Virus record (IMG/VR): IMGVR_UViG_3300034143_000010 | DNA length: 64,000 nt | Reading direction: 5' to 3' (one strand) | Origin: a virus | Shown here: positions 24,297 to 53,236 of the stretch, in pieces | Numbering within the stretch: position 1 is the stretch's first letter | Layout of the letters: every line of letters starts with the position of its first letter | The notes under the pieces: model-generated | Seen by the model: the letters and a program-made list of their open reading frames with translations, nothing else | Database searches by the model: none | What the model was told of the DNA's origin: nothing | Made by a program: the position numbers and the translations under genes

Positions 24297-24335
24297 GTTA
24301 TTGTGTATCCCCCACAATCAGACAATTGCTGAATC

Positions 24336-25832: not shown

Positions 25833-27595
25833 ATCCTGAACTCAACTGATCCCACTTCTTTGGTTTTGAATAGGAAGTCGGGAGCGACTGACAACACGAA
25901 GCCGTCACCGTCGTCGGGCGAGCGACCCAATCGTTTGGGTTTGCGAAACTCTATCTTCGACTCCAGCCTCTTAACGTCCACGCCCTTGAGGTTGACCCAC
26001 TCGTAAAGGCGCTCACACAGATCGGCTTCGAGCGTCTCCGGGGGCTTTTCGATGCGTATCCCCTTCAGCGTCTCCGCCGCTTCGGCCATCGCTTGAGTGA
26101 TCAGATCGTGATAGGACTTCTCGTCGGTGGCACTGGCATTGAAATGCACTTCGTAGACACGGAAGTCTATGAACGCGGCGCGCAGCTCCATATCGGTTTT
26201 GAGCTTGTCCACGACGCCGCCACCGAAGCCGCCGCCGCCATCGACGCGGATGTGCAGGCTTTTAACGCCCTTCCCGGCGAGCTTGAGAGCCTCTGCCTTG
26301 ATGACGCGCGCATAATCGTTCGTGTCCTGTTTCCAGAACTGCGCGGCGCGCCAGGCGCGGCCCATGTAGCGAATAAAGAGTGTTCCGTAGTCACGCCCGT
26401 AGCGAGATACGTCCACGCCCATGCGCGCGCGCGTCGGGTCTTCTGCTGGAGCCTCCCGCTTGCAGGCAGCCTCGTAGCGCCCGACGGTAATCAGGCTCTT
26501 GTCGGAGATATTTGCCGGAGCAATGCCGAGCACGCGGAACATGAATTCCGGGTCGGGCTTAAAGATCGTGCCCTCCGGATGCGTGCCGTCTTTAGTGACG
26601 ACCGGGAAAGGTAGCTCGAAGGTCAAGTCATCTTCAGAGTGCTCAGTGACAACCTCGCAGTGCTTCTCCACCATTTCCTCGACGTACTGCCGCTTGACCG
26701 CGCCCGGCACGACCTCACGGCCTGCGACGACGTTCGGGTGATGAATGCAGGAGATGCGAAAGCTCTTGACGTTGGAATTGTTTTTCGCCTTATGAAACTT
26801 CGACGAGCGGGTCTTAGGGTTCGCCAGCATGAGCACGATGGAGATTCCGCCCGAGGTCATCGAATCAACCGCATTCCAGACGAAGTCGGCTACGCCCTCG
26901 GCCTCATCCAGCACATAGAGGTTATATTTGCCGTGCTGGCCCTGCGCGCGCTCTGTTCCTGTGCCGCTGGCGTTGTTTGTCGCCTTGCCCTTGATGAAGT
27001 GCTCGTCGCCTACCCTGATCTCCAAATCCATGACCCGGCCCGGAAGGCCCTTGTCGCGCCTGTCAGTCTTTATCTCCTTGAATAGCAGGTCATGAATCTG
27101 CTCGCCTGAAGGCGCAAAGCAGTACCCGACGCATGGCGTGAAGTGATCGAAGAAGTGGTTGACCAAGCCGGAGGTCAGCTTGGTCTTACCGACGGTGTGA
27201 CCGGCTTCGACACGAATACGGTTTTTAATGACTTGTCCGGGCTTCCAATACTGTAGATCGTCAACTGTAATAGGCCCCGGCTTCAGCCACGGGCAATACG
27301 GCGCATCTTCTTCGGAAAGGAAGCCAGCTTCGTATGCCTTGCGCTCGTGCTGCTGTCGTAGCGCGAGCACGTAAGCGTCTATAACCTGCTGCTGACCGGG
27401 ATGATCTTCGTCTCCGCTCCATGGCTCCCAGCCCAGATGATTCTTGATATAGGTGGCCGGTTCGTAGTGCGTAGCATTGAAGCGGCTCGTCTGAGGAGCT
27501 GGGCCATAGACCTTTAAGGCAAGCTGCGCGGCCTCCGCCTGTTGGTCAGGCGGCAACTGCATTATGCGTGCATAGACTTCCTCACGACTGAGCAT
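25829..27595 (-). CDS. terL: Terminase large subunit
   Basis: Walker A-like AGHTVGKT, Walker B VLDEAEG, nuclease GVDVSRYGRD and SPDDGDG. Start refined to MLSREEVY. Confidence 0.9.
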   Translation of the reverse strand: MLSREEVYARIMQLPPDQQAEAAQLALKVYGPAPQTSRFNATHYEPATYIKNHLGWEPWSGDEDHPGQQQVIDAYVLALRQQHERKAYEAGFLSEEDAPYCPWLKPGPITVDDLQYWKPGQVIKNRIRVEAGHTVGKTKLTSGLVNHFFDHFTPCVGYCFAPSGEQIHDLLFKEIKTDRRDKGLPGRVMDLEIRVGDEHFIKGKATNNASGTGTERAQGQHGKYNLYVLDEAEGVADFVWNAVDSMTSGGISIVLMLANPKTRSSKFHKAKNNSNVKSFRISCIHHPNVVAGREVVPGAVKRQYVEEMVEKHCEVVTEHSEDDLTFELPFPVVTKDGTHPEGTIFKPDPEFMFRVLGIAPANISDKSLITVGRYEAACKREAPAEDPTRARMGVDVSRYGRDYGTLFIRYMGRAWRAAQFWKQDTNDYARVIKAEALKLAGKGVKSLHIRVDGGGGFGGGVVDKLKTDMELRAAFIDFRVYEVHFNASATDEKSYHDLITQAMAEAAETLKGIRIEKPPETLEADLCERLYEWVNLKGVDVKRLESKIEFRKPKRLGRSPDDGDGFVLSVAPDFLFKTKEVGSVEFRI

Positions 27596-28100
27596 TGTCA
27601 GCAGGCAGCTCGTCAGGAGAAGCGCCAAGAAGTTCTGCCAGAGCCTCACGCGCATTAACCTTCACGTCTACTTTCTGGCGGCGGTCGCCCATCTCTTTAG
27701 CGATGTCATCAAGCAGGCCACGGAATTGCGTAACCTCCGCTGAATTGAAAGTATCGACATCAACGATTTCCTGAAAATCGCCACTGCCGACGGCCTTCCT
27801 ATCGGGCAGCCACAACCGGCCATTTTCGAGTAGGTCTTTCTCCAGTTCTTCGGCGAGCTTATTCAGCGACTCAACGCGCCGCTCCTTGCGGGCAAAACCT
27901 ACTTTCAGCGCGCTCGTCTCCGCTTCATCCTTAATCTGCGAGACCTTCACTTTGCGCGTTTTGCGATAGTGGTCTACCTGCTGGCGTGAGACTGAGTAAG
28001 GCTCGTCGAACTTACTTGCCTGCTCGTTAATCTCGTTGCTTTCGAGGCCCTCTGAGATCAATGCGAGCAGGTGCTTTTTTTGGTCGCTGTTCAGCTTCAT
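27582..28100 (-). CDS. Putative terminase small subunit
   Basis: Helical ORF overlapping the terL start. VSRQQVDHY, LDDIAKEMG. Confidence 0.65.
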   Translation of the reverse strand: MKLNSDQKKHLLALISEGLESNEINEQASKFDEPYSVSRQQVDHYRKTRKVKVSQIKDEAETSALKVGFARKERRVESLNKLAEELEKDLLENGRLWLPDRKAVGSGDFQEIVDVDTFNSAEVTQFRGLLDDIAKEMGDRRQKVDVKVNAREALAELLGASPDELPADNAQS

Positions 28101-28308
28101 CGTTTTCTTGCCCAGGCTCGGCATCAACGAACCTGACTGTTACTTCAAGGAGACGCGCGCGCCCGTGATGCGCGAGCAGAAGCGCCGCGTCGGCTTCGGA
28201 GGCTGGCAGGTCGAGCTTGATGCGCGCACCGTCGCCTCGCCCACCGGAGAAAGTCACAGCGCTTTGAATCGGCGGCAGTGAGGCGAGGAATTTGATCTCA
28301 TCTACCAA
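28027..28308 (-). CDS. Hypothetical protein
   Basis: DEIKFLASLPPIQSAVTFSG.GDGARIKLDLP. TTG start inferred. Confidence 0.5.
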   Translation of the reverse strand: MVDEIKFLASLPPIQSAVTFSGGRGDGARIKLDLPASEADAALLLAHHGRARLLEVTVRFVDAEPGQENDEAEQRPKKAPARIDLRGPRKQRD

Positions 28309-28495
28309 GCTGTCCCGCCTTGAATTGGAGGAATCTGTAAGGCTCTGTGTTCCTGTATTGCAGCGCGGCGCACCTGTCGCACCGCCGCACTTCCCTGTCC
28401 CTGCGAACGGTGCCGCCGTGCCAGACGCACCAGGCATGGAGAGGAAGGAGGTTGCAGAGTAAGAATTTAAGAATTTTGTTCATCGCACTTGTCAC
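28298..28495 (-). CDS. Small Cys-containing hypothetical protein
   Basis: LCNLLPLHAW...RCDRC. Coupled to neighbouring ORFs. Confidence 0.45.
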   Translation of the reverse strand: MTSAMNKILKFLLCNLLPLHAWCVWHGGTVRRDREVRRCDRCAALQYRNTEPYRFLQFKAGQLGR

Positions 28496-28505
28496 CCGTT
28501 ACTTG

Positions 28506-28901
28506 TCAGGCCTGCACAGTAAGTTGGCGGGCCATCTGCCGCGCACGCTTCGCCTCGCGCCGGTTCACCTTCGGCTCCTTGCGCACGGCGGTGATGCCGC
28601 GTATGAAATTGCCATCTTCTGGGTTCACACGGTCTGATCGGTGCGCATAGACGCCGTAGCGACCGCACACAGCTGATGGCTTATCAGCCTCTTCCTGCCG
28701 CTTCTGAAGCTCGTAGCGGCGTACATTACACTCAGCTTGAGAGCGCGCCGTATCCGGGTGCTTACAAGCCCTGTGATAGCCCGCCTCAACCGTTCCTGCT
28801 TCGATCAGGTCTGCGAGCAGCCTGATCTTGACCTCCTGCGGGTCGGTCTGCCGCTCCATCTCAGCGGCGACCTTCAGTTCTATTTCTTCGAGATCGATCA
28901 T
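28506..28901 (-). CDS. Hypothetical protein
   Basis: RBS ggag before MIDLEEIELK. Confidence 0.55.
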   Translation of the reverse strand: MIDLEEIELKVAAEMERQTDPQEVKIRLLADLIEAGTVEAGYHRACKHPDTARSQAECNVRRYELQKRQEEADKPSAVCGRYGVYAHRSDRVNPEDGNFIRGITAVRKEPKVNRREAKRARQMARQLTVQA

Positions 28902-29007
28902 TTTGTCTCCTGTTTGACTGCTCCGACGAAGCCTTGATAACAGAGGATTTGAATCACCAGAGTTATGGCCCGGTTTATGATCTTCACTGCGATACCTCAT
29001 GCTTCAA

Positions 29008-29026
29008 AATCGTCAAATTTACGAAT
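29008..29026. repeat. Palindromic repeat, copy 3
   Basis: aatcgt caaattt acgaat. Confidence 0.9.
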
Positions 29027-29027
29027 A

Positions 29028-29216
29028 TCAACTCTGTAGATTCTCGGCCCACTCGACCTGTCCCCGCACCACGAAGAACTGCGCGCCGCAGTCGTGCGGA
29101 CAAATGATCGAAGGCTCAGCCGACCATGTGCCGCCTTCGTGCTGTGTGATCTCGTGTTCGTCGAGAGTCATCCAGCCGCCGCAGCGCGGGCACTTGATTT
29201 TCTTCCTGATACTCAA
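29028..29216 (-). CDS. Small zinc-binding protein (DUF6527-like)
   Basis: CPRCG...TWSAEPSIICPHDCGAQFFVVRGQVEW. Confidence 0.55.
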   Translation of the reverse strand: MSIRKKIKCPRCGGWMTLDEHEITQHEGGTWSAEPSIICPHDCGAQFFVVRGQVEWAENLQS

Positions 29217-29341
29217 GACTCTTGCTCCCTCTTCGCCCGCTCCTTGTAGTAGTTGTCAAGCAACTTCTGAATGACGATGCTCAGAATGCCGATAAAAGCG
29301 ACGATCACGCTTGCAACGCCGCTATCTAATTTCCTGCGCAT
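29213..29341 (-). CDS. 42-aa single-TM protein
   Basis: MRRKLDSGVASVIVAFIGILSIVIQKLLDNYYKERAKREQES*, overlapping both neighbours. Confidence 0.5.
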   Translation of the reverse strand: MRRKLDSGVASVIVAFIGILSIVIQKLLDNYYKERAKREQES

Positions 29342-29937
29342 GGAAGCTTCTCCTCTGGAATTCTGAAGAATGCCTGAACGACCCTTGGGTCGAACTGGCT
29401 GCCGCTACAACGTGTCAGCGCCGCGGCTGCCGCCTGATAGCCTTTCCCTGCGCGATAACACCGGTTATTCGTGATGGCGTCATAAGCATCGGCCACGGCC
29501 ACGATGCGCGCCCCGAGCGTGATCCCAGCGCCTGCAAGGCCGCACGGGTAGCCATGTCCGTCAAATCGCTCGTGATGCTGGCCGACGATATCAACGATAT
29601 GGACGGGCATCTCCAGTTCGGCGAGGGCCGCCGTGCCCTCGATAACATGCGCTCGCATGTGCATGCGCTCGATAGCCGTTAATTCGCCTTCCTTCTTGAG
29701 CACAGAGTCTTTCGTGCAAATCTTGCCGATGTCGTGAAGCTGTGCGCCGTAATAGAGCGCGAGCAACTCGGCGCGCTCGAGCTTCAGCTCTCTGCCGATA
29801 AGCACGGAAACACGCGCGACCCGTAAAACATGGTCATGCGTTCCCCTATCCTTTAACTTGAGCGCAACTAACAATGCACTGCTAGCGATTCTTAGTGCAT
29901 CGCCCGTAAGTGCAGAAGATTTTAATGTTATCGGCAT
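29326..29937 (-). CDS. Stand-alone HD-GYP phosphodiesterase
   Basis: HVLRV, LHDIGKI, HVIEG, QHHERFDGHGYPCGL, ARIVAVADAYDAIT, GSQFDP. Confidence 0.92.
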   Translation of the reverse strand: MPITLKSSALTGDALRIASSALLVALKLKDRGTHDHVLRVARVSVLIGRELKLERAELLALYYGAQLHDIGKICTKDSVLKKEGELTAIERMHMRAHVIEGTAALAELEMPVHIVDIVGQHHERFDGHGYPCGLAGAGITLGARIVAVADAYDAITNNRCYRAGKGYQAAAAALTRCSGSQFDPRVVQAFFRIPEEKLPCAGN

Positions 29938-30263
29938 TTAATTATTCGGACGGTGTTATGCCCTGAAACCCTTCCACCGATGTAGCTTAGGTAAATCCGG
30001 TCTTACGTTTTGGGAGGGTGTCCGCGCCCCTCACGAACAGGTTATCTAAGACCTCTCTTTAGTTTATTTAGGGTGTCCGCCCGCCCGCCATTGAGAGCCT
30101 AATAAAGCCCGACGTTTAATTACTCAGAGGGTGTCCGCCTTGACGCACTCCGCCGAAAAGAGCTTAGATAAAATGGATATTTAACTTTTCAGGGGGGTGT
30201 TACGGCTTTTGCCCCTACAGGCAAAGGGTAGGACTTTTAATTGATTAGTTTGGGGAGGGTGAA
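29919..30263 (-). promoter_or_regulatory. Tandem array 2 of six tripartite promoter-like units
   Basis: (G/C)GGTG(T/A) at 29951, 30016, 30071, 30129, 30195, 30257. Each has YTAA (GTAA in unit 2) and a TANNNT hexamer at 13-14 nt on the minus strand. Confidence 0.75.
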
Positions 30264-30266
30264 ACG

Positions 30267-30299
30267 GTGAATAGGAAGAGAATAATTGCTATCGGTTTA
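30267..30299 (+). pseudogene. 5' remnant of a DUF4177-like gene
   Basis: GTG-NRKRIIAIGL resembles MFISRKIIAIGL of 5723 at the same position relative to the array, then similarity stops. Confidence 0.6.
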
Positions 30300-30346
30300 C
30301 CTTCGCCTCTAGTTTGCCGTCACTTTGATAGTTTCTCTTAGCTTAT

Positions 30347-30500
30347 CAAAGTGATCGCGCGTGCCCGTGACTACTCCGCATTACGCGGCTTCTCAAGCAA
30401 CGCCCTCCCTAATGGGACACGTTTGCGCTTGAAGGTTAAGCCCTAACCTCAATATCTCTAATGCGGCAGAGTGGTCACGACTAACACTCAAGCCGCATGT
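30347..30500 (-). ncRNA. Predicted TnpB omega-RNA (scaffold ending at TCAC 30367, guide beyond)
   Basis: Minus strand gagaagccgcgtaatgcggagtagTCAC is a typical IS200/605 right end just after tnpB. The 5' extent is a guess. Confidence 0.55.
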
Positions 30501-31514
30501 TTGGCATTCATGCCAGCGTTGCGAGAGTGTTTTAGGTACGCCAGCGCCGCATGTGCATCTCTGTGATGTTCCGCGAGGGTCAACTTTAACCAGCTTGCGT
30601 CCAGTCTCTTCCACTTTGTACGCAACCTTATTTAAAAAGCTTGACCATCCAGCATCATTAACAGACTTGGCTAGCATTCCGCTCGCCAAGCCTTTAATGT
30701 TCAAATCTTCTATGGCGATCAATCCGTAATTGTTGACGAGAGCGCGAGAGGCTTTATGGTGAAAGTCTGCGCGTTGATTCTTAATGTGGGCATGAATGCG
30801 CTGTAGAAGTTGCACGGCTTTCCGGCGACGATGAGAGCCTTTCTTCCGTCGTGCTACTTTGCGCTGTGCCCTGCGAAGCTTGGCTTGTGCTGTCTTGAAA
30901 TAGCGCGGGTTCTCTATTTCTGTACCATCAGAGAGGGTAGCGAAAGTGGTAAGGCCAACATCTATTCCAATAGACTCAGAGCAAGGCGGCAATGGCTTCT
31001 CTTCACATTCAAGACTAAAACACACGTACCAACGTCCAGCCTCGCGCTTAACAGAAACTGTCTTGATCTTGCCTTCGATAACGCGGTGAAGTTTTACTTT
31101 AACGAGCCCAATCCCTTGCAGTCTTAACTTGCCATTATCAAGTAAGCGGCAACCATTACCATAAGCAGGATAGGTAAAGCTGTCGAAGCGGCGTGCAGAT
31201 TTAAATCGCGGAAATCCCGCTTTCTCTTTACGCTTCACGCGAGCAAAGAAAGCCTTGAACGTCTTATCAAGACGGCGCAATACATCATGCGCTACGTTGC
31301 AATTGAAGATACCAGTGTCGCCCTCCGCTCGAATCTCTTTAAGCTGGCGTGTTTGATCGTATAGTTGGATGGACTTGCGCTCTAACTTCCAAGCGTCGCG
31401 GCGCTCCTGAAGCCCAGCGTTATAAAGTCTGCACGCCTCCGCTAGTTGACCATTCAGCAAGTCAACCTGTGCGCGTGTCGGATACAACCTATACTTGAAA
31501 GTCTTACGAATCAT
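30393..31514 (-). CDS. tnpB: RNA-guided endonuclease TnpB (IS605/IS1341-type)
   Basis: KTFKYRLYPT N-terminus, RuvC IGIDVGL / IAIEDLN / SRDHSAA, zinc finger CTCG...CQTCG. No tnpA in the window. Confidence 0.95.
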   Translation of the reverse strand: MIRKTFKYRLYPTRAQVDLLNGQLAEACRLYNAGLQERRDAWKLERKSIQLYDQTRQLKEIRAEGDTGIFNCNVAHDVLRRLDKTFKAFFARVKRKEKAGFPRFKSARRFDSFTYPAYGNGCRLLDNGKLRLQGIGLVKVKLHRVIEGKIKTVSVKREAGRWYVCFSLECEEKPLPPCSESIGIDVGLTTFATLSDGTEIENPRYFKTAQAKLRRAQRKVARRKKGSHRRRKAVQLLQRIHAHIKNQRADFHHKASRALVNNYGLIAIEDLNIKGLASGMLAKSVNDAGWSSFLNKVAYKVEETGRKLVKVDPRGTSQRCTCGAGVPKTLSQRWHECQTCGLSVSRDHSAALEILRLGLNLQAQTCPIREGVA

Positions 31515-31521
31515 CTGCTAT

Positions 31522-32022
31522 TTACGCAGCCTTCTTTCTCACATCCCGGCCCGCCGCCAGATCAAGCTCGCGCTGAATAGCCCTCTCCGAGAGCCCCCGA
31601 CCGCGCAACGTCTTTGCCGCTTCCGCCGCCGCATCTCTCGCCCTCTTCGCCCATTCCTTTGTCGGCCAACTCCCCACGTAGAAGTGCTTCCCGTCAATCG
31701 TGATGCACACGGCAAACGGGCAACGCTTTGAATGAGGATTGCGATAGATAGAGCCGTCAGTGATTTTCAGATTAGCGCGGCGATAATCAAGAGTCTCTTT
31801 ATTGATGCGCCGCACGCGCACGCCTCGCGGCAAATCCAACACGGCATGATGAAGCATTATTTGTGTGGAGCGTCCGGCCATACACCTGAGCCGATAGACG
31901 TATGAGTATTTACCTACGCGCATGAGATGCCAGCGATAGCGATTGAGGCGCAGGTAATCTTCAAGATCAACTATCGCCGTCTGCTCTGAATTGACTAATG
32001 GTAATTCTCTATAAGGTTTCAT
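31522..32022 (-). CDS. Degenerate HNH-AP2 domain protein (paralog of 10238-10738)
   Basis: Near-identical sequence, same loss of HNH catalytic residues. Confidence 0.7.
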   Translation of the reverse strand: MKPYRELPLVNSEQTAIVDLEDYLRLNRYRWHLMRVGKYSYVYRLRCMAGRSTQIMLHHAVLDLPRGVRVRRINKETLDYRRANLKITDGSIYRNPHSKRCPFAVCITIDGKHFYVGSWPTKEWAKRARDAAAEAAKTLRGRGLSERAIQRELDLAAGRDVRKKAA

Positions 32023-38300: not shown

Positions 38301-38708
38301 TTACTGCTGCGGAAAGGCCTGATTCAGAGCGTCGCGCAGCGGAACCAGGAAGCGGGCGAACTTCGGACGCCTGATCTTGTCTGTGACCAGCGCCGTGACG
38401 GTGGAGATGGCCTGATTGATGAGAAGGTCTTGCCAGCCGCTGAACACACTCGAAGAGGCAGCTGCACTCAGGGCCTGCACATTCGACCCACGGGGAAGCG
38501 CCAGCGCCCAGTTCAGCAGATTGCTCGTCTTGACTTTGTCTCTCTGTCCCCAGAACAGAGAGTAAAACGCCATCACCGAGCCGATGAACTGGAGGGCGTA
38601 AGTGACAAAGCCTTCCTGTTGCTCAGGAGTGATCTTGCCCTTAGTGGCGAGATACGTTCCCAGAATGCCGAGCGCCCAGCGAAGAGCGGATGCGATTTTT
38701 GGATTCAT
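38301..38708 (-). CDS. Putative holin
   Basis: Two N-terminal TM helices (SALRWALGILGTYLATKG; ALQFIGSVMAFYSLFW). Late position. Confidence 0.6.
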   Translation of the reverse strand: MNPKIASALRWALGILGTYLATKGKITPEQQEGFVTYALQFIGSVMAFYSLFWGQRDKVKTSNLLNWALALPRGSNVQALSAAASSSVFSGWQDLLINQAISTVTALVTDKIRRPKFARFLVPLRDALNQAFPQQ

Positions 38709-38838
38709 ATAGTCTCCGATCGAAAGATTTGGCAGGCGCTTCGTAAATGAGGCACTCAGGGCGACCGGAGCACAGTCAGATTATTCGCCTCGCTATGCGG
38801 TGCGCTCCATTTCTGTAGAAGCGCCTGCCTGAGGCCAG

Positions 38839-38881
38839 AGACTAGACCAGGGAGGGATTTAATTATTCGGAGGGTGTCCGC
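38839..38881 (-). promoter_or_regulatory. Single copy of tripartite late-promoter-like motif
   Basis: GCGGACACCC-tccgaataa-TTAA-N14-TAGTCT upstream of the holin-like genes. Confidence 0.75.
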
Positions 38882-38885
38882 TTTG

Positions 38886-39332
38886 CTACGGGACGATATC
38901 GCCGAAGGGGCGGCCTGTGAGATAGATATCCATGCGCTTCGGGCCAGGCCGGAGACTTTGGCGCGGACGCCATTCCGCTGCCTTGGCTTCGATCAACTCA
39001 TTAACAATCTTAACGACCGTCGCCTTCACAATTGAAGTCTCCTCGCAGATATCCGTGATGGAATTGCATCCCTTGTACTTGATGGCTCGCAAGATATCTT
39101 TGACACTCTCATCCTTACTTTGCCCGCCGTGCTTGCGCATCTTATGTACGAGCCGGTAAAGATCTCTCAGAAGTTCTTTATTCTCCGGCTGATGCCAGTA
39201 CTCTGATCCATCTACCTGCCAGAGCAGTTCCTGAGCGCGCTCATTTGCTTCGGCCCGGCGATCATCCATCTGCTTTCGCCTGCGCACCGTTCTCGAGCTG
39301 GGGGAAGGAATAAGTGTTTCAGGTAATGCCAT
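38886..39332 (-). CDS. Winged-helix DNA-binding protein (candidate late activator)
   Basis: ILRAIKYKGCNSITDICEETSIVKATVVKIVNELIEAKAAEW. Located in the usual late-regulator slot. Confidence 0.6.
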   Translation of the reverse strand: MALPETLIPSPSSRTVRRRKQMDDRRAEANERAQELLWQVDGSEYWHQPENKELLRDLYRLVHKMRKHGGQSKDESVKDILRAIKYKGCNSITDICEETSIVKATVVKIVNELIEAKAAEWRPRQSLRPGPKRMDIYLTGRPFGDIVP

Positions 39333-39338
39333 AAAAAT

Positions 39339-39863
39339 TTATCTCTGATTAATTCTACGCCTGAGTTTCGATGCCTCGGCCTTGGCCTTTCGCGCCGCAT
39401 GATGCTCCCTGTAGAGGCGCTTCAGCAGTTCAATGGTGCCGAAGTAAGAGAGAAGCGCCGGCGTTTCGTACTGCGCGAGGTGATCATTGAGGATTTGCCG
39501 GATAATCAGGCAATCTCGTGCGACTGTCCTGAGCCCGCCCGAGGCTTCGATAAGGGCGAGCATGTCTTCCTGTGCCTCGCGCAGCTTGCCCTTCTCAGTT
39601 TTGACCTCAATGGCCCAGAGGCGGCCTGTGATGGGGAGAATCGCTGTGATATCTGGCCAGCCCGCAGGCTTGACCAGTTGCCGTTTGCCTTCATCTGTTT
39701 CGACCGTCCGAGCATTTGTGACGGCATAGACGACGTTTCGCGCGTCAAGGTAACTCGTGATTGATTTCTGTACTCCGGCCTCGTCAGGGCCTAAGACCCG
39801 CAGGGCACGAGCCCTCTCGCCTTGCTCAAATGGTAATCCGCCGCTGTATGCACGCCTTTTCAC
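39339..39863 (-). CDS. VRR-NUC / PD-(D/E)XK nuclease
   Basis: EAGVQKSITSYL...GWPDIT...WAIEVKTEKGKLREAQ. Confidence 0.85.
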   Translation of the reverse strand: MKRRAYSGGLPFEQGERARALRVLGPDEAGVQKSITSYLDARNVVYAVTNARTVETDEGKRQLVKPAGWPDITAILPITGRLWAIEVKTEKGKLREAQEDMLALIEASGGLRTVARDCLIIRQILNDHLAQYETPALLSYFGTIELLKRLYREHHAARKAKAEASKLRRRINQR

Positions 39864-39870
39864 CAGAGCG

Positions 39871-39912
39871 CTTATACAGAGATGCGGGATTTAATTGTCT
39901 TGAGGGTGTCCG
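39871..39912 (-). promoter_or_regulatory. Single copy of tripartite motif (TATAAG -10)
   Basis: CCGGACACCC-tcaagacaa-TTAA-N14-TATAAG upstream of VRR-NUC and the wHTH gene. Confidence 0.65.
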
Positions 39913-39938
39913 GCTGCCCCGAAGAGTGAGCAGCCGGA

Positions 39939-40259
39939 CTAAGCCCCATGGAGAGGACAGTCGCTGACCAGCTCCTTAAAGAGTTCCGTCAGATACTGGT
40001 CTTCGAGCGGGATGAGCACGTCCGCGCCGGTCTCGTCGCGGCCCCGGATGCCGTTATTCCTGATGCCGAGCACCGTGACTTCCTTGCCCTGGAAGTCGAT
40101 GGTGGGATTCTTATGGTTGATGATCTTGCGGTTGACCCAGTCTTTAAGATAAAGGCCGGCGTCCGCCTCTGCGACCGGTTGCTGAGCCATAGCAGTGCCG
40201 GTGGCCGCGCCCGTTCCCGCGGTCTTGGTTGCCACTGAAGAGTTCAATTTGTCATCCAT
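39939..40259 (-). CDS. Hypothetical protein
   Basis: RBS aaggag before MDDKLNSS. Confidence 0.65.
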   Translation of the reverse strand: MDDKLNSSVATKTAGTGAATGTAMAQQPVAEADAGLYLKDWVNRKIINHKNPTIDFQGKEVTVLGIRNNGIRGRDETGADVLIPLEDQYLTELFKELVSDCPLHGA

Positions 40260-40731
40260 TATGTGCTCCTTAAGTGATGGATTAAGTTGACCGATACGCC
40301 GGGATTGGCATATCTTCACTTTGAACAACGGAGCACAGGGAGATGCCAAGCGCCTCCTCTTGCATACTGTAGGGGAAGCGCCAGCAGAATTCATCACGGA
40401 GTTCTCAGGCAGAAGGCGAAGAATTCTCGCCGCTTCCCAAAAACAACCTTGAGCGCCCTGCATTAGCCGATTGGTATGCAGGGCGTTCGTGTCAATCCCA
40501 CAAGACCACCGGGATATTGGAGAGCGGTAATCTACGAGTCTGAGCGTGATTAGGTCGCTAGTAGCGGTATTTGACTCCTATTTAATGTGTTAGACCGGTA
40601 GCGGTAGTTGGTGGGAGTTCCTATATAATTACCGCCTGCGGCCTATTTATAGTTAGAAACCGCCTGATCGCATCGACATGAGAGCAAGCAGAAAGAGATC
40701 TGCTGCTGCCTCATGTCGCTGCTCAGTGGCG

Positions 40732-40842
40732 GTCTAACAACTCATTGAACCTCGACGCCTCGATAGCGTGCCTTTCATGCTCATCTTGTTCCTCGTAGCT
40801 TGAATGCTATATGCTCGGCGCGGGTTAATTCGAGCGTTCGGT
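40732..40842 (+). other. attC site 1
   Basis: GTCTAAC-aa-ctcattgaacc ... ggttaattcgag-c-GTTCGGT imperfect palindrome. Confidence 0.85.
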
Positions 40843-40893
40843 TGCTACGTGTATAGACAGCGTGTCATCTCAATCGAGATGGGGAGAAGTTAA

Positions 40894-41640
40894 ATGAAAG
40901 AGGTGGATTACGCGAAACTATCTGAACAGTACGCCAGCTTCCTTGTAGCAGCCGGCGGTGTCAGTATTACTGTGCTTACCCTTGTTTTAGGTTTGAGTTC
41001 TCCTCCAACCACAGTAACTGAAAAAAATGCACGATTGTTTTTGGTCGCAGCTCTAATCGCAGCAACAGTCTCATGTTTCGTAGGTGCTCACATGATGGCG
41101 GAAACAGCAGCGTTCTTTACTCATAAACCATCAGAAAAAACACCGCCAGCTAAAATACCGTTAGGGCGGCGACTATTCGTATTAGCTAGCAGCAACATTT
41201 TCGTCGCAATAGCTTTGGTGCTATTCTCAATAGTATTGCTTCCAACTGCTACTGGGAAGATCGAATTGGCCGCTAGTCTTAAACCTATTACTCATGTGGT
41301 CTTTCTGGGGGTTGTGATTGGCGCACTCTGCTGGATGGCTCTCGCGGCCATTGATCGTACAAGTGTGGGCGGAGAAGGCTGGTATGCTATTGCAGGCGGG
41401 ATCATTGTGGGGGTCTTGGGCGGAGCTATTTTTCATTATTTCTCTAAGGACAACTGGCCACAGGTAATATTCATAATTATCGTCTCTTTTACCGCTGCAT
41501 CTCTGCTTTACTTTGCTGTAATTTTTAAGATCGGGAAAGCCTGCACCCGAAAAGCTTGCATCATAGAAATAGGAGTCTTCAGTTCAGCCATTACCATTTC
41601 GTATGTATCTCTTATAATCTCTTACTTTAAAATACTGTAA
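40894..41640 (+). CDS. Multi-pass membrane protein (cassette ORF)
   Basis: About seven hydrophobic helices. Single ORF between attC1 and attC2. Confidence 0.8.
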   Translation: MKEVDYAKLSEQYASFLVAAGGVSITVLTLVLGLSSPPTTVTEKNARLFLVAALIAATVSCFVGAHMMAETAAFFTHKPSEKTPPAKIPLGRRLFVLASSNIFVAIALVLFSIVLLPTATGKIELAASLKPITHVVFLGVVIGALCWMALAAIDRTSVGGEGWYAIAGGIIVGVLGGAIFHYFSKDNWPQVIFIIIVSFTAASLLYFAVIFKIGKACTRKACIIEIGVFSSAITISYVSLIISYFKIL

Positions 41641-41684
41641 AGTTTATGAACCACTAAAGTTGAATGCTAAAGAAAATGGCCGCA

Positions 41685-41792
41685 ACCGAACAACTCATTC
41701 AACCCGACGCCTCGATAGCATGCTTCTCAAGTTGCCTCCTTCGATGTAGATTGAATATCTGCGCTCGGCGCGGGTTAATTCGGGCGTTAGGC
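41685..41792 (+). other. attC site 2
   Basis: ACCGAAC-aa-ctcattcaaccc ... gggttaattcgg-gc-GTTAGGC. Confidence 0.85.
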
Positions 41793-41845
41793 GCTCTACC
41801 TTAAGGCGTCATGGATTTGTCCAAATCTAGATAAGGAGCGGTCAA

Positions 41846-42616
41846 ATGACAACAGGGGAGGCTAAACCCTCAACCACACGCTCGCTAACACCCTTGTGGG
41901 TCGTTTCTTTATTTGTCTCACTAACCGAAACAGTGTTAGGTATTGGAGTTATTCAAACTACCGGTGGCATACAGATAGCTCTTACAGTATTTGTTATGAT
42001 ATTCCCACTCTTAATCGCTGGAGCCTTCTTCGGGATTCTTTGGCACAAACCTTATGTTTTTTATTCTCCTAGCGAGTATGCTCAACAAGACGTTCGTCAA
42101 TACGTTGAAGCTATGCAATCTCGGTCACGCATTGATAGTAAGCTATTTCCTGAACTTGAACATATCGTTCGTTCACAGTTGTCCTCAAGCGAAGTCGTTG
42201 CCGAACTTACCGAAACCATTTCCCGCAGGGCCGGTGACCGTGTTGAGGGGCAAATAGCCAAAATCTTAACATCTGTTGCAGACAGAACTGTTGAATCAAT
42301 CAAAGATGAAAACTTCCTAACAGTAGATTCACGGAAACTAGTAGGCGTAGATGGTGATATTTGGCGCATACCATATAGCAGATACGTGACTGTTTCTGAA
42401 CTGCTCGATAATGTTTGGTTCCTACTTGAACCATACGGCACACCCTCAATGCAGTATGGTGTTATCTGGGCGTTGCGCGACAAAAGAACCGGCACTGTCC
42501 TAAAAGATATGGGGAGAACGTGGGCTAGAAAACAAGGTAAGATTCAAGATGGGCGCACCTTATCACAGGTCGGAATCACGCCGGGTATGTACTTGGAAGC
42601 AGTACCACTAAAATGA
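41846..42616 (+). CDS. Membrane protein with C-terminal ubiquitin-like segment (cassette ORF)
   Basis: Two N-terminal TM helices. C-terminus QDGRTLSQVGITPGMYLEAVPL. Confidence 0.7.
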   Translation: MTTGEAKPSTTRSLTPLWVVSLFVSLTETVLGIGVIQTTGGIQIALTVFVMIFPLLIAGAFFGILWHKPYVFYSPSEYAQQDVRQYVEAMQSRSRIDSKLFPELEHIVRSQLSSSEVVAELTETISRRAGDRVEGQIAKILTSVADRTVESIKDENFLTVDSRKLVGVDGDIWRIPYSRYVTVSELLDNVWFLLEPYGTPSMQYGVIWALRDKRTGTVLKDMGRTWARKQGKIQDGRTLSQVGITPGMYLEAVPLK

Positions 42617-42635
42617 ATCTTAGCCGTGGCGACGT

Positions 42636-42660
42636 GCCTAACAAAGGCATGCACCCGATT
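42636..42660 (+). other. Truncated attC (left half only)
   Basis: GCCTAAC-aaaggcatgcacccga, with no matching right half before the next RBS. Confidence 0.6.
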
Positions 42661-42679
42661 GAAAACTCGGAGGACTATC

Positions 42680-43702
42680 ATGTCACCTCACCGAGACATA
42701 GATCATCTTGAAGACTGGGCCGCAGAAACGCATGAATCAATCTCTGCGCGTCTCGAAGGCGCGAAGGCTGCACAGACACAGACTCGCTTGACGCTTGGCA
42801 CGATGGCCGTCATCTCAATGATGATGCTGATTGCGTCATACAACGCCTATTTATCCTATGACTACAATTGGATCACCGCAGCGAGATGTCAACAATCTAA
42901 AGCTGCTGAGGAGTCGAACATTTCCAAAGAGCAAACATCTGACCCCAACACACTCAAAGAGCAGGCCCCCACAGCCGCGGATGATTCCAAGATACTCAAA
43001 GAACAAGCATATAAAGATTGGGCGGCATCAAGAACCATCCTGATCTCAATTCTCGGCATTCGCGTCTCCGTTGATGACGCAGCAGTGTTGGGCACAGCGG
43101 TGCTCTTCGTCCTTTCGCTATGGCTCTTGCTCGTGGCGCGGAGGGAGAACCACACCATTGGCTTCTTGCTTCGCGACACGGACACGCCCCGCCGCGCTGA
43201 TAAGAGAGAGCGATCAGATACGTCTTCAACGGAGAGGCGGCTGCAGACGGATGCCGACGGGGAACGTTGGCGCATCTATCATACGATCATTTCAAATAGC
43301 CTCTTCATCACATTCGACCGCCTGCCGCACGTGCACACACTCATCGGCCCTAATTCATTGCAGGTCACTACCAGACGCAGAGGCAGCGGCTGGCGCGACA
43401 AAGTAGGTCTCAAACCTATCCGAGGCTTCTTCTTCTGGTTCCCTGTCGTCACTTCCATCGCCGTGTTTAGTCTTGATTGGTGGTCATACTTCAGCGACGA
43501 TCCATTTAACCTCGGATGTGAACCCGACCGCTACACGCCTTTTTTCTGGAGAACCAGGGTTGTGTTTCTCATGTGTTGGGTCCCGATGACAATCTGCTGT
43601 ATGAGGTCGAACCGATATTCGAGGGCTACGGAAAGGGTATTACGCAAGTATGGCAGAAGGCTTTTCGCCAACTTAAAACGGAAGCAGGCCGTGAAAAGTT
43701 GA
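42680..43702 (+). CDS. Multi-pass membrane hypothetical protein (cassette ORF)
   Basis: RBS ggagg before MSPHRDID. Several TM segments. Confidence 0.75.
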   Translation: MSPHRDIDHLEDWAAETHESISARLEGAKAAQTQTRLTLGTMAVISMMMLIASYNAYLSYDYNWITAARCQQSKAAEESNISKEQTSDPNTLKEQAPTAADDSKILKEQAYKDWAASRTILISILGIRVSVDDAAVLGTAVLFVLSLWLLLVARRENHTIGFLLRDTDTPRRADKRERSDTSSTERRLQTDADGERWRIYHTIISNSLFITFDRLPHVHTLIGPNSLQVTTRRRGSGWRDKVGLKPIRGFFFWFPVVTSIAVFSLDWWSYFSDDPFNLGCEPDRYTPFFWRTRVVFLMCWVPMTICCMRSNRYSRATERVLRKYGRRLFANLKRKQAVKS

Positions 43703-43765
43703 AAATGGAAGACCGCCTCTCCAATAATCGAGTGTGACAGATTTGAAGGTTTGAATCGGAAAGCG

Positions 43766-43795
43766 GTCTAACACCTCATTCAACCCGACTCTCAT
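43766..43795 (+). other. Truncated attC (left half only)
   Basis: GTCTAAC-ac-ctcattcaacccgac, cut off by the convergent phage gene. Confidence 0.65.
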
Positions 43796-44184
43796 CAAGC
43801 AACATCTTTCTTTTGCTCAGCACGCAGTTCATCGAGACGCTTCAAATGCTGCTCTGCTTCTACAACCAGCGCCCTTGTTCGCGGAGCCCAGAGCCAGTCG
43901 GGGTGTCGGTGATATTCCCTAACGAACTCCCGCATCTCGGCTTCGATAGCTCGCAACTCTTCGATCTCGCCTTTTACTTCTTCCTTTGCATTTTCCATGG
44001 GCTCACAGACCTCATATGAAGGATTTCTGGCCTGTAAATTAGAATAGTTTATTTTTGCGCGGCAGTTGTCACAACTGGCAAACCCGGAAGTTTGCCATTC
44101 TTTGCGGTCGAAGAAGTTTCGGTAGCTGCACGGGCAGCGTACAGCGATTGTGAGGGGAGTTGAGCCGAGGAAGGTGGCTTTCAT
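43795..44184 (-). CDS. Zinc-finger hypothetical phage protein
   Basis: RCPC...CDNC plus helical C-terminus. Confidence 0.55.
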   Translation of the reverse strand: MKATFLGSTPLTIAVRCPCSYRNFFDRKEWQTSGFASCDNCRAKINYSNLQARNPSYEVCEPMENAKEEVKGEIEELRAIEAEMREFVREYHRHPDWLWAPRTRALVVEAEQHLKRLDELRAEQKKDVA

Positions 44185-46517: not shown

Positions 46518-46855
46518 GAATCCTCCTTCGATGGCGACACCCATTCGTGACGTGTGCTCATGCGCCGGCGGAACTCGACACGTCCTCGCAACATTTTGGT
46601 TTTGAGTGGACAGTCGCAGCTCGTCAGAATCTTGCTGATCTGATTGGTCGGCTGATCGTAGACGAAAACCGTGGCCGTCCACTCTTCGCGGGCGCAAAAC
46701 GAGCCGTGTTCCCACTGCACGCTGCCGGCGGCGTCCAAGTCGAGCACGAACACGATGCCGCTCTCGTCATTGGCCTCAATGCAGTTTTCGAGCAGCTTGC
46801 CGTCGAGATAAACCTCGTGCCTGTAAAACTCAGCTATACCTGTGTGCAACCGCAT
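46514..46855 (-). CDS. Hypothetical phage protein
   Basis: VYLDGKLLENCIEANDESGIV...RGRVEFR. Confidence 0.55.
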   Translation of the reverse strand: MRLHTGIAEFYRHEVYLDGKLLENCIEANDESGIVFVLDLDAAGSVQWEHGSFCAREEWTATVFVYDQPTNQISKILTSCDCPLKTKMLRGRVEFRRRMSTRHEWVSPSKEDS

Positions 46856-49780: not shown

Positions 49781-50764
49781 TCACGAAGCCATCGCCATAC
49801 ACTCTTCGGCCTGCACGTAAGAGACTGGTTTATCAATCGAGTCGGCCACCTCTTCCGGCGTCAGGTAGTAGGGCTTTGAAGAATGCGCCGCCAGGTTGAC
49901 TTCCCAGCCGTAGCACTTCAGGTCTCTCGTTAGCAGAAGGCTGGTTGCGAACTCCGCCGCCTCCGCAGCGATCCGCGCGTTGATGTTGAAGGACTGAAGG
50001 CCGCGCGCGGTCAGTTCCGCGCAGCTCAGGTCGTTGCCTTCAATCTCTTCCGGCTCGGGGATAAGAAGGCTCGGATATAGAAGTGTCGGGCTCGGAATAC
50101 TGATGCATCTCTTCCGGCCAAGAAAAGCGCCGCGCATCTGCTCCACCGCGGGGGCCGTGCCGAGCAGCACTCTCCCGCTCCTGCGGTGATTGCCTAGATC
50201 AAGCCAGAAGATAGAAGGCAGCGCGTCCGGGGCTTCCGGCTGCACGGGGTTGTGCTGGAGAGTATCTGCGAGCGTGCGGCGGGCGGCGGCGTTGTCCGCG
50301 CAGCCGACGAGAAGCGTGAGATCTGCGCCGATCAGAAGATTCTCACTGTACTCACCGACGTAGGCGAGGGCATTTAAGCCCCATGCCTGACCGTAGCGGC
50401 GCGCCACCGCCTCCGCCTTCGGCACGCCGAGTTCTGCGTAGCAGAAGAGTTGGCGACCGATGTTTTTCTCTTCGACCATTTGCGGGTCACAGACTGTCAG
50501 GTTGACAACCTTGCCCGCGCGGTCGAGCGCGTATGCGAGACGCCCCATGTGCATCGTCATGTAAGAACCGTTACCGCCCGCGCCGGCGATGATGACCTGA
50601 ACGGAATCGAAGGGGCGCGTTGCGACCACAGAAGCGTTATAGAAGCCAAGGTTGACGGAGGGCGGCGGTTCGGGCTCTACTGTCGGCTGCGCCGGTTGTA
50701 CTGGGCGGGGTGAAATATGTTGTGGCTGTCGCGGGAACTTTTTCTTGACTTTTCTTTTGCTCAT
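49781..50764 (-). CDS. E1-like ThiF family protein (PRTRC ThiF-like)
   Basis: IAGAGGNGS, VEEKNIGRQ, VGCADN..AR, WLDLGN, DLSCAE. Confidence 0.9.
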   Translation of the reverse strand: MSKRKVKKKFPRQPQHISPRPVQPAQPTVEPEPPPSVNLGFYNASVVATRPFDSVQVIIAGAGGNGSYMTMHMGRLAYALDRAGKVVNLTVCDPQMVEEKNIGRQLFCYAELGVPKAEAVARRYGQAWGLNALAYVGEYSENLLIGADLTLLVGCADNAAARRTLADTLQHNPVQPEAPDALPSIFWLDLGNHRRSGRVLLGTAPAVEQMRGAFLGRKRCISIPSPTLLYPSLLIPEPEEIEGNDLSCAELTARGLQSFNINARIAAEAAEFATSLLLTRDLKCYGWEVNLAAHSSKPYYLTPEEVADSIDKPVSYVQAEECMAMAS

Positions 50765-51492
50765 GATTGCTCCTGAAGTAGGCAGTCGGTTAAGCCTTCC
50801 GGCAGCTCGAAAAACTCACTCGCCGGATATTCCATAAAATGCCCGAACAGTCCGACGCGTGCGCGAATCGTCGGCCTCTTGAAGATCGTGCCGATGACAG
50901 CGTAGATTCTGAACGTGGGTCCACCCTCGTCCGCGTCGTCCTTTTCGGAGAAGCGGGCCTCACCCGCGTGATGGCTATGCACCTCGATAATGGCTCGCGC
51001 CTCGGAGCTTCCCTGCCCTTGGTGAAGAGGCTTGACCTCGTCATCGGTCGCGCGCTGATCCGGGCATTCCAGATGCCAGCCGCGTGAGAGTAAGGGCGGC
51101 CCGAACGCAGGCTCGATGCACTGCCTGAAGTGGGTGTCTCCGAATGAAAGATGGAAAAGTGCCTCTTTCAATTCCGTGCGGCTGCGCACGAGCGAGACCT
51201 GAAGCATCAGCTCGACGAGCTGCTCCGGGACTTTCGGATAGCCCCACTGGACGTAAGGCTCGACGGTCTTGAGGCCATGCATCTCGTAGAGAGCAACAGG
51301 CACACACGCTTCGAGCCCGGCTTTGCGGCTACGCACGAATGTGCCGGTCGAGCCGACGACCCGCTCATAGAGAAGCGACTCGTCAACGGGCGGAAGCTGC
51401 TTGCCGCGAAGAGCGAAATAATTTTCTGTAAGACGGAAGCTCATTGGTTCGGTCTTCACTGTTTGAGTTGGCGGGGCGGTTCTCATTGCCAT
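50761..51492 (-). CDS. JAB/JAMM metallopeptidase (PRTRC protein A-like)
   Basis: IIEVHSHHAGEARFSEKDDADE. Confidence 0.9.
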   Translation of the reverse strand: MAMRTAPPTQTVKTEPMSFRLTENYFALRGKQLPPVDESLLYERVVGSTGTFVRSRKAGLEACVPVALYEMHGLKTVEPYVQWGYPKVPEQLVELMLQVSLVRSRTELKEALFHLSFGDTHFRQCIEPAFGPPLLSRGWHLECPDQRATDDEVKPLHQGQGSSEARAIIEVHSHHAGEARFSEKDDADEGGPTFRIYAVIGTIFKRPTIRARVGLFGHFMEYPASEFFELPEGLTDCLLQEQS

Positions 51493-51575
51493 TGAGCGGC
51501 TGCTCCGTTTTAGCTGCGCGCAATCCGCCGTGGAGCATCTCCCGGCTGAGACGTGCCGAATCCCGCCCGCGAAAC

Positions 51576-52295
51576 TTACGACGGTATCTCTCCCGTCTCG
51601 AAGAACACCCTGATCGCTTTATCAAGCGTTACGCCCACGTCGCGTACCTGCCGCATAAGATCATCGACCGGGTAGCGATCACAGCCTGCGCTTGACAGCT
51701 CTCGCAGCATCACGCGCACGTCTTGGCCTTCACGCTTCGATCTGCCCTTCGCCAGGTGGTTATTGAAGGTCGTCCCCATGAAGAGGTTAAACGCCTGAAG
51801 GAGAGCGAGAGGAGAGGAACGCGGCGGCTGCAAATCACCCCAGCAGACACGACCATCCTGGTAGAGATTGGAGAGCGGGGCGCGGTAGATTTCATGATAG
51901 GGTTCGAGATGGTCAGTCTTGACCGCCCAAACGAAGTAATCAACCTTGATGCCGAAACAGACGAGCCCCGGCAGAGGGATAGTGAGACGATCAACTTGGC
52001 TTTGCTGGCCGTCCGCGCCCTCGCGCGAGACTTCGAGCGTGTAGCGGCGCGGCGGCATAAACGCGAGCGCCCACTCTAACCCTCGATGACGGCCCGTGCG
52101 GCGAATTTCGGGCGGCAGCCATCCGGTGTCAATGGGGACGTTTGCGAACGCCTCCACAATCGCTTCGGGCGCGACGAATTTCTCCTGCACGCATCCTTGC
52201 TGATTCGTAAACCTGACGAGATATTGCCCGTCGGCGATCTCGATCATCGGGTTGGTCAGCCCGTCCTGCACAAGCTTCGTCATCGCTTCTGTCAT
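51576..52295 (-). CDS. Prokaryotic E2-like protein (PRTRC protein B-like)
   Basis: PLPGLV...FVWAVK...YRAPLSNLYQDGRVCWG with conserved Cys. Start refined to MTEAMTK. Confidence 0.85.
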   Translation of the reverse strand: MTEAMTKLVQDGLTNPMIEIADGQYLVRFTNQQGCVQEKFVAPEAIVEAFANVPIDTGWLPPEIRRTGRHRGLEWALAFMPPRRYTLEVSREGADGQQSQVDRLTIPLPGLVCFGIKVDYFVWAVKTDHLEPYHEIYRAPLSNLYQDGRVCWGDLQPPRSSPLALLQAFNLFMGTTFNNHLAKGRSKREGQDVRVMLRELSSAGCDRYPVDDLMRQVRDVGVTLDKAIRVFFETGEIPS

Positions 52296-53236
52296 TGCTC
52301 TCCCTCCGCGCGCCCCATAAGCGCCGTGAATATTTCCGTGTCCAGCATCCCCTCGAATCCTGATTCCCTCTCCAAAGCCGCCGCCTCGTTCCACAACTCC
52401 ACGGCGCGCGCAATGCGAGGCCCTGCGTCCTCGTCGAGCCACCGGTCGAGCTCCCCTACCCTGTAGTTCATCGCTTCGGCTTCCGCCCTCTTGTAGAGAA
52501 GCCAGGCCACGTTCTCGTGAGTCCACTCGAAACCGGCGCGGCCCGCTTGTGTTGGCAGATCGAGCCACGGATTTCCCGTTTTGTAGCAGACCATGTGGAA
52601 GGCCAGCGGCAGATGCCGAAGCGGCGTCTCTTCGACCGCGCAGGAATAGAGAAAGTGAGTCCAGCCGTAGGCTGCGAGCGGCGGCGAGGCCTCCTGCGTG
52701 AGCCCGTAATGCCTTGCGAGAGCAGTCCAGCCGTCAGGGGAATGCCCCGAGAGGACGAGCACGACCTTGAAGACGGTCTGAAGCTTCTGGAATGGGCAGC
52801 AGCCTCCCAGCCAGTTGTGCTGCTGCGTGCCCCTCACCGGGATATATTCGAGAAAGAAGTAGGGGTCACTCGCGATATTGCTTTCGAGCTCGTCTTCCAG
52901 GTCAGCGCTTAAGCAGAGCGGAAAGAGGCGCTTGTTGACGAGGCGGTAGAACTCGTGCTCGCGCTCGGTGGAATAGAGCGGGGCCTGCGAGCGCGCGTAC
53001 TCTTCCGGAAAGCTCTCGCGGAAGATGCTCATGACGCGGAGCGCGATATGAACGCGCTTGTCATAGGTCAATTGCCCGTGCGTCGCAGCCACGCCGATAA
53101 ATTCGGCAGCGCCGAGCGGCGTGCGCACGCGCGCGCGCCCCGCCAGATAAGTGCTGGCCCGGTCTAGGCTGAGCAGCTCGCGGCGCGCGAGAATGAATTC
53201 AGCGGCAGGCTGTGTTGTTTGAAGGCCGTCGAACAT
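52292..53236 (-). CDS. Hypothetical protein in the PRTRC protein F position
   Basis: Between the Ub-like and E2 genes, TGNPWLD motif. Confidence 0.55.
   Translation of the reverse strand: MFDGLQTTQPAAEFILARRELLSLDRASTYLAGRARVRTPLGAAEFIGVAATHGQLTYDKRVHIALRVMSIFRESFPEEYARSQAPLYSTEREHEFYRLVNKRLFPLCLSADLEDELESNIASDPYFFLEYIPVRGTQQHNWLGGCCPFQKLQTVFKVVLVLSGHSPDGWTALARHYGLTQEASPPLAAYGWTHFLYSCAVEETPLRHLPLAFHMVCYKTGNPWLDLPTQAGRAGFEWTHENVAWLLYKRAEAEAMNYRVGELDRWLDEDAGPRIARAVELWNEAAALERESGFEGMLDTEIFTALMGRAEGEQ

Follow-up and report, generated by a model that had tools for sequence, protein, structure and literature searches.

An integron fragment lacking an integrase in a prophage of a soil acidobacterium

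Phages have been shown to carry pieces of bacterial integrons. A screen of 10,705 phage genomes identified three complete integrons, one In0, and 17 clusters of attC sites lacking integrases (CALINs), with examples that include parts of sedentary chromosomal integrons within temperate phages of Vibrio anguillarum, and Shewanella prophage M16-3, in which an attI-led CALIN is flanked by phage genes (Qi et al. 2023, PMC9892861). Virus record IMGVR_UViG_3300034143_000010, a stretch of 64,000 nucleotides (hereafter the window), contains an array of this kind and raises the question of how gene cassettes came to lie within a phage genome, and whether the phage acquires them using an integrase supplied by its host. 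Here, we show that 40524-43789 (3.3 kb) is an integron fragment with a predicted attI site, four gene cassettes, and no integrase. The block is real and is part of a prophage of a soil acidobacterium, a Pyrinomonadaceae-like one. Very probably it derives from a chromosomal integron of the sedentary type, a fragment of which was captured as a block, subsequently decayed, and is now a passenger in the prophage.

The order of the components is a predicted attI site, a cassette without an open reading frame (ORF) but with a long hairpin and a complete attC, ORF1 with a complete attC, ORF2 with a truncated attC, and a leaderless ORF3 with a second truncated attC; the three ORFs fill the spaces between the repeats. 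These features are as follows.

40524-40658, + strand: predicted attI site, from alignment with sequences immediately upstream of the intact intI of five relatives
40524-31, + strand: upstream box of attI, GCGGTAAT
40550-57, + strand: first direct repeat of attI (DR1), TTAGGTCG
40590-97, + strand: second direct repeat of attI (DR2), TTAGACCG
40639-45, + strand: L box of attI, CGGCCTA
40652-54, + strand: GTT core of the attI R box, GTTAGAA
40653-40836, + strand: ORF-less cassette, a 75-nt near-perfect hairpin (40659-40733) plus attC_A, from the DNA fold and homologous cassettes
40732-40842, + strand: attC_A, complete (111 bp), R'' GTCTAAC at 40732-38 and R' GTTCGGT at 40836-42, profile E-value 9.4e-26
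40894-41640, + strand: ORF1, 248 aa, with about seven transmembrane helices predicted from hydropathy; cassette 40837-41786
41685-41792, + strand: attC_B, complete (108 bp), R'' ACCGAAC at 41685-91 and R' GTTAGGC at 41786-92, profile E-value 5.8e-24
41846-42616, + strand: ORF2, 256 aa, with two N-terminal transmembrane helices, a helical linker, and a predicted C-terminal ubiquitin-like beta-grasp domain
42636-42658, + strand: attC_C, truncated, with R'' GCCTAAC and L'' (AAAGGCATGCACCCGA) only
42680-43702, + strand: ORF3, 340-aa membrane protein
43766-43789, + strand: attC_D, truncated, R'' GTCTAAC and L'' (ACCTCATTCAACCCGAC), at the right end of the block

The two complete repeats (40729-40843 and 41682-41793, about 110 bp each) have arms that are 85-93% alike, and a third copy at 43763-43789 includes only the first 27 nt or so. 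They were compared with the host assembly, G000 (5.53 Mb in 41 contigs, with a completeness of 97%), by searching it and the window with an nhmmer profile seeded from attC_A and attC_B. About 100 copies of the same family of approximately 108 bp are present in G000, organized in same-strand arrays with a spacing of 500-1500 bp; 36 of these are at C15:137991-167999, about 38 on C14, and others on C25, C21, C38, C23, C18, and C33. The window sites are closely similar to these, and attC_A is 90% identical to the host site at C25:42501. Both complete sites have the R''/R' consensus (RYYYAAC ... GTTRRRY, 57-141 bp apart), with a departure at the fourth base of R' in attC_A, which is C rather than R; AAC and GTT are conserved in more than 90% of 47 host copies.

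The host arrays also follow the rule expected of cassettes, in which the variable bases following GTT in one site are exactly complementary to those preceding AAC in the next. This is so in 38 of 71 neighbouring host pairs, far beyond chance, since shuffling the pairs yields 7.8 on average and 16 at most. The attC_A to attC_B pair in the window obeys the same rule (TTCGGTT / AACCGAA), delimiting the ORF1 cassette. In the first-pass annotation of this DNA the opening core was said to be the complement of the closing inverse core in three units; this holds for ORF1 (GTTCGGT/ACCGAAC) and ORF2 (GTTAGGC/GCCTAAC); the GTTAGAC of the first unit belongs to attI DR2 and marks no cassette boundary. A 23-pair stem joining the R and L arms is supported by the 47 host copies, with 85.3% of cells paired versus 29-47% when the partner is slid by one to three columns. 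Double-change cells number 83 versus 49 in shuffles (none of 500 shuffles is as high), and five stem pairs switch between GC and CG, such as pair 27-99 (GC in 18, CG in 15). The R''-L'' arm has unpaired bases at alignment columns 21 and 29 of the 5' arm; extrahelical bases on this arm are an established attC feature. Judged by sequence, attC_A and attC_B are genuine attC sites of a family belonging to the host lineage. No Rfam match was found in 40300-44100. Base composition also counts for an integron origin of the block, its GC content of 0.479 being like that of the host arrays (0.48-0.54) and unlike that of the phage flanks (0.55) or the genome as a whole (0.60).

The left end of the array was examined in an alignment (A3) of window 40464-40760 with the DNA upstream of intI in G002, which is of the same genus, and in G003, G010, G042, and G048, together with G000 C25. 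All share a GCGGTAA box and a pair of TTAGRCCG repeats 40 bp apart (and, where intI is present, some 125 nt from its start), followed by an L box (consensus CGGYCTAA) and a GTT core that is invariant in all seven aligned sequences. In the five relatives with intact intI the site adjoins the 5' end of the gene, whereas in the window an unrelated gene of 174 aa is in that place. With its direct repeats and an L/R simple site ending in a GTT core, 40524-40658 is identified by this alignment as a predicted attI site. The first of the four consecutive units initially proposed for this array is therefore not a cassette, because the GTTAGAC at 40589 taken as its opening core is DR2, and the crossover core is the GTT at 40652-40654; it resolves into attI and then an ORF-less cassette. 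All four attC sites proposed at the same time, two complete and two half sites, are real.

Past the GTT core the A3 sequences diverge, as expected from differing first cassettes, except in the window, C25, and G002, which share the ORF-less cassette. Its hairpin (40659-40733) folds as DNA at -36.1 kcal/mol (z = -8.2), and none of 200 shuffles is as good. Members of this cassette family join a hairpin of about 75 nt, conserved in its loop region (GCAAGCAGAA..ATCTGC), to the attC R''. The hairpin cassette is first after attI in five loci (window, C25, G002, G006:C39, and G010:C223) and lies between two ordinary attCs in G011, G005, and G041. Copies include those at G000 C25:40335-40447, L047:2648-2746, L068, L069, L070, L071, and L074. 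Possible roles are those of an insulator, a small RNA, or a substrate recombined with very high efficiency. A scan for sigma-70 promoters and terminators gave no promoter-like site in the attI region, with counts near those of shuffles, and the sequencing runs listed as containing this DNA include none of RNA.

Both half sites proposed in the first-pass annotation proved to be attCs cut after L'', as seen by comparison with homologous loci on metagenome contigs (L045, L061, and L062). ORF2 homologues are cassettes in the L045 and L061 arrays, and the one in L045 (80% identical) is followed by a complete attC whose 5' arm (GCCTAAG AACGACATACACCCGAC) aligns with attC_C, after which the window diverges. 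Host site C23:215 has the same L'' variant, and the R'' of attC_C (GCCTAAC) is the exact complement of the opening of the ORF2 cassette, GTTAGGC. A chance match was considered for attC_C and dropped given C23:215 and the complete attC in L045. Similarly, attC_D matches the 5' arm of a complete attC following an ORF3 homologue in L062 (90% identical), which continues where the window does not; only 5 nt separate the end of attC_D from the stop codon of the adjacent phage gene, P0001. All three ORFs are bona fide cassettes elsewhere, as seen for ORF2 and ORF3 in these homologous loci.

In L062 the ORF3 homologue is between two complete attCs, and its cassette starts at G/TTAGACCGC with a leader of about 115 nt. 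Homology between the window and L062 begins just 22 nt ahead of the ORF3 ATG, so that the native first 115 nt or so of the cassette are lost. The coincidence of this loss with the cut in attC_C suggests that a single deletion took both the 3' part of attC_C and the ORF3 leader, fusing two cassettes. Truncated attCs are common in the host arrays too, where they are cut at varied positions and 5' halves are far commoner than 3' halves. Separately, a 77%-identical ORF3 homologue with an attC is located directly after a tRNA-like sequence at L063:3440-4864, outside any obvious array.

The first-pass annotation reported no intI in the window, and this was confirmed throughout the 64 kb both with the integron-specific TIGR02249 profile and by tblastn with the IntI of a congener. 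Intact intI, defined by the 265-bit cut-off of TIGR02249, was also not found in G000. The best match in G000 is at C21:258837-259001 (97.6 bits), where TIGR02249 residues 260-314 only are covered, with a TGA inside; tblastn with the congener IntI aligns residues 272-326 at 82% identity with an internal stop, such that a 55-residue C-terminal remnant is present. A host array (C21:260015-262536) adjoins this remnant, and nowhere in G000 was an intact intI found beside an array. The host thus has about 100 attCs on at least five contigs (C14, C15, C25, C38, and C23), yet intI only as a remnant with a stop. Intact intI is present in 54 of the 101 related genomes searched (G023, which is unpublished, being counted in this tally and used for no other claim), including five of seven congeners; a sixth has a partial match below the cut-off. 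Loss of intI with retention of attI is recurrent in the lineage, as other genes are at the intI place beside attI in relatives, an IS1595 transposase in G010:C223 (L068) and a gene with an FlgT_C domain in G006:C39 (L070).

With two complete and two truncated attCs within 3.1 kb and no intI in 64 kb, the block falls within the CALIN class of IntegronFinder (Neron et al. 2022, PMC9024848), which requires at least two attCs in the same orientation and no intI nearby. This class is silent on attI, and because a recognisable attI is kept, the block is better described as an integron that lost intI than as a CALIN.

The array is flanked on both sides by phage genes, and the immediate neighbours are as follows.

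39339-39863, - strand: VRR-NUC nuclease gene, from Pfam and PHROG matches
39939-40463, - strand: left flanking gene, 174 aa, at the place of intI and next to the VRR-NUC gene
43795-44184, - strand: P0001, phage gene flanking the block on the right, 129 aa, with N-terminal motifs rich in Cys

Genes to the left, all on the - strand, code for tape measure, major tail, capsid, scaffold, portal, large terminase, and holin functions, a winged helix-turn-helix protein, and the VRR-NUC nuclease; to the right, also on the - strand, are P0001, a phrog_9210 protein, a phage metallopeptidase, and an E1/JAB/E2 operon. Contiguous prophage modules are thus represented by large terminase, portal, scaffold, major capsid, tape measure, holin, VRR-NUC, and phage metallopeptidase genes, and an integrase-like match lies just beyond the window at C20:34178. 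The 174-aa product has no Pfam or PHROG match and is not IntI; it is related neither to the gene that takes this position in G057 nor to the IS1595 transposase adjoining attI in G010. In G057 (locus L041), one small gene, and no array, stands between a P0001 homologue and the VRR-NUC gene that comes after it, indicating that both flanks belong to one phage module. The proposal of a cassette array embedded in a prophage is supported, given an attC family of host type, phage genes on both sides, and a related phage that keeps the flanking genes together without the array; so does the observation that the array, on the + strand, points against the phage operon. The prophage may be cryptic, as it contains an insertion sequence (IS) transposase. 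The window corresponds to three G000 contigs (C30, C11, and C20), and a segment at 22815-31569 (terminase, portal, and IS transposase) was not found in G000. Elsewhere in G000, three attCs, the last truncated (L064; C18:106132-107421 and 108463-109551), have a Phage_integrase-family gene and an HTH_36 gene at a distance of about 1 kb, and this may be another integrative element carrying cassettes.

Four explanations can be considered for the presence of this block. An assembly artefact, with attC repeats chimerically joining cassettes into a phage contig, is suggested by the 100 or so attC copies and by breaks in Logan contigs from two soil and biocrust samples that may be the source of the assembly; these breaks occur only inside attC_A and attC_B. 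However, unbroken Logan contigs cross both outer junctions with 0 differences, one spanning 38495-40788 (phage to attC_A) and another, of 24 kb, spanning 41766 to beyond 47000 (attC_B to phage); their depth is uniform (about 39-48), two assemblies agree, and an artefact is extremely unlikely. No sample contig joins the phage flanks without the array, and many short joints between 40751/40838 and 41689/41773 were discarded, their sides being about 20 nt and derived from attCs of other arrays. A further contig of the samples that contain the window, 21.6 kb long and of higher depth, resembles the holin region (38495-38739) and 46523-46810 at about 85-88% similarity, with a different 6.8 kb or so between them; it is probably a second, related phage. 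It is also very unlikely that the block is a chromosomal integron remnant caught between two mobile elements, one on the left with structural and lysis genes and one on the right with early genes and an integrase. In its favor, an array-free relative of the whole phage was not recovered, the prophage shows heavy mosaicism (an IS, TIR morons, and the E1/E2/JAB operon are present), and other small attC clusters of G000, such as that on C18, are beside integrases. Against this, the flanking genes on both sides run in the same direction as in one early-to-late transcription unit, the P0001 homologue and VRR-NUC gene are two genes apart in G057, and the left part has no integrase or replication genes and the right part no structural genes.

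The first-pass annotation suggested a more active role, in which the prophage recruits a host IntI in trans to load cassettes singly, making the block a phage-owned cargo platform. The attI homologue and the two intact attCs are in accord with this, as are the perfectly matching ends of the ORF1 and ORF2 cassettes and the frequency of IntI in the lineage. It is unlikely nonetheless, and several observations count against loading in trans: the host has only an intI remnant; beside attI is the very hairpin cassette that heads chromosomal arrays in the host and in congeners, giving no sign of insertion at attI since capture; two of the four attCs are destroyed; and neither outer junction is a G/TT crossover, the left including the whole attI with DNA upstream of it and the right lying inside an attC. 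From the non-crossover junctions, the shared attI-proximal cassette, and the lack of a host IntI, we infer that the block was captured whole by a process that was not site-specific. It would have entered the phage genome by illegitimate or other non-site-specific recombination in an accessory-gene region between the early operon and the VRR-NUC and late genes, rather than arriving cassette by cassette through IntI. Decay would have followed, with one deletion fusing the ORF2 and ORF3 cassettes and another event removing the 3' half of the last attC. Its present role may be that of moron-like cargo, with three membrane proteins that travel with the phage.

Several points weigh against capture of a chromosomal integron block followed by decay. 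A close array-free relative of the phage was not found among 100 related genomes, IMG/VR, and a metagenome scan (the 100 genomes gave only two distant P0001 matches, and none useful for the 174-aa gene), and the empty site and exact junctions are thus not located. In the sample contigs, only attC repeats connect the ORF1 cassette piece (40803-41715) with what lies on either side, and placement of this piece depends on two concordant assemblies and equal depth. Both truncations fall directly after 'ACCCGA', which random decay does not predict. The host assembly, at 41 contigs and 97% completeness, has arrays at contig ends, and an intact intI could sit in a gap. The first-pass annotation counted failure of the sites to fold as attC bottom strands as refuting, and here the results are divided. 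The bottom strand of attC_B pairs its R and L arms when folded (-20.1 kcal/mol, z = -1.7), and the stem covaries in the 47 host copies; single-sequence folds of attC_A and attC_B on both strands are, however, not significantly stabler than shuffles (z 0.34 and -1.7), and RNAalifold on a MAFFT alignment of the 47 sites returned no pairs. The stem was consequently specified by hand rather than predicted, and then tested by counts.

The cassettes code for proteins whose homologues come from soil metagenomes, with homologue names that point to Pyrinomonadaceae. There are 135 homologues of ORF1, none with a telling Pfam family and several of them proteins of Pyrinomonadaceae metagenome-assembled genomes; 88 of ORF2; and 250 of ORF3, all without a Pfam family. 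ORF1-3 themselves have no Pfam or PADLOC match, their Atlas neighbours are unnamed, PHROGs provide no function (the ORF2 N-terminus matches one PHROG of unknown function), and tblastn identified no paralogue in the host genome. The C-terminus of ORF2 is confidently modelled as a ubiquitin-like beta-grasp domain, with residues 155-256 of the AlphaFold model having a pLDDT of about 91 and Foldseek matches to ubiquitin, ISG15, and YukD (TM-scores by target of 0.6-0.7). This domain does not have a terminal Gly-Gly; the E1/JAB/E2 operon of the same prophage is at 49781-52568. Given the lack of a named family or a PADLOC match, an anti-phage role for ORF1-3 is only a possibility, and nothing links the three proteins to defence.

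Comparison with known systems places the block within a described kind. Like Shewanella sp. prophage M16-3, it starts with an attI of host type, has no adjacent integrase, is flanked by phage structural genes, and is in a possibly cryptic prophage (PMC9892861, section 3.3). M16-3 also has a complete integron with an intact IntI, whereas in the present case an intact IntI is absent from prophage and host assembly alike; M16-3 is from the Gammaproteobacteria rather than the Acidobacteriota, and two attCs are truncated here. Vibrio anguillarum phage Va_90-11-286_p16 is likewise temperate, with a sedentary integron fragment, host-type attCs, and cargo mostly of unknown function (PMC9892861, section 3.1). 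However, its fragment has intIA, is at the prophage ends, and is excised at attC sites, whereas the block described here is internal, without intI, and with ends that are not attC crossovers. Sedentary chromosomal integrons have taxon-specific attCs, for which a model for Acidobacteria is available (Ghaly et al. 2021, PMC8352920). The family here is consistent with these in having mutually similar, lineage-specific attCs of about 108 bp, about 100 host copies, and cassettes mostly of unknown function, and differs in that this copy is in a phage genome and the host integrase is degraded.

Phage morons are accessory genes inserted between phage modules. As with morons, the block consists of low-GC foreign genes that lie between the early and the late modules and run opposite to the phage operon; it differs in having integron architecture, and the sigma-70 and terminator scan showed no promoter or terminator of its own. 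Integrons and attI-led CALINs are thus already known in phages (PMC9892861), and it is the host phylum that is apparently new. No new mechanism is shown, and there is no evidence for anti-phage cargo.

This locus provides a clear, well-delimited case of integron DNA in a temperate phage, and soil Acidobacteriota are not among the phage cases reported previously (Qi et al. 2023, PMC9892861). As an example of a decayed passenger, in which intI has been lost, cassettes fused, and attCs halved, it aids the reading of CALINs elsewhere. The analysis also defines a lineage attI architecture (a pair of repeats at a distance of 40 bp, with an L box and a GTT core) and a recurrent non-coding hairpin cassette. 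Only attI, attC_A, and attC_B would be potentially usable by an IntI from another host, with ORF2 and ORF3 fixed in place. It is rather doubtful, if conceivable, that the phage attI and the two intact attCs form a working docking platform without an integrase, at which IntI-positive hosts swap cassettes between chromosome and phage; if so, temperate phages would shuttle integron cassettes among soil Acidobacteria. The finding itself supports phage transfer as one exit route for cassettes and docking sites from sedentary chromosomal integrons.

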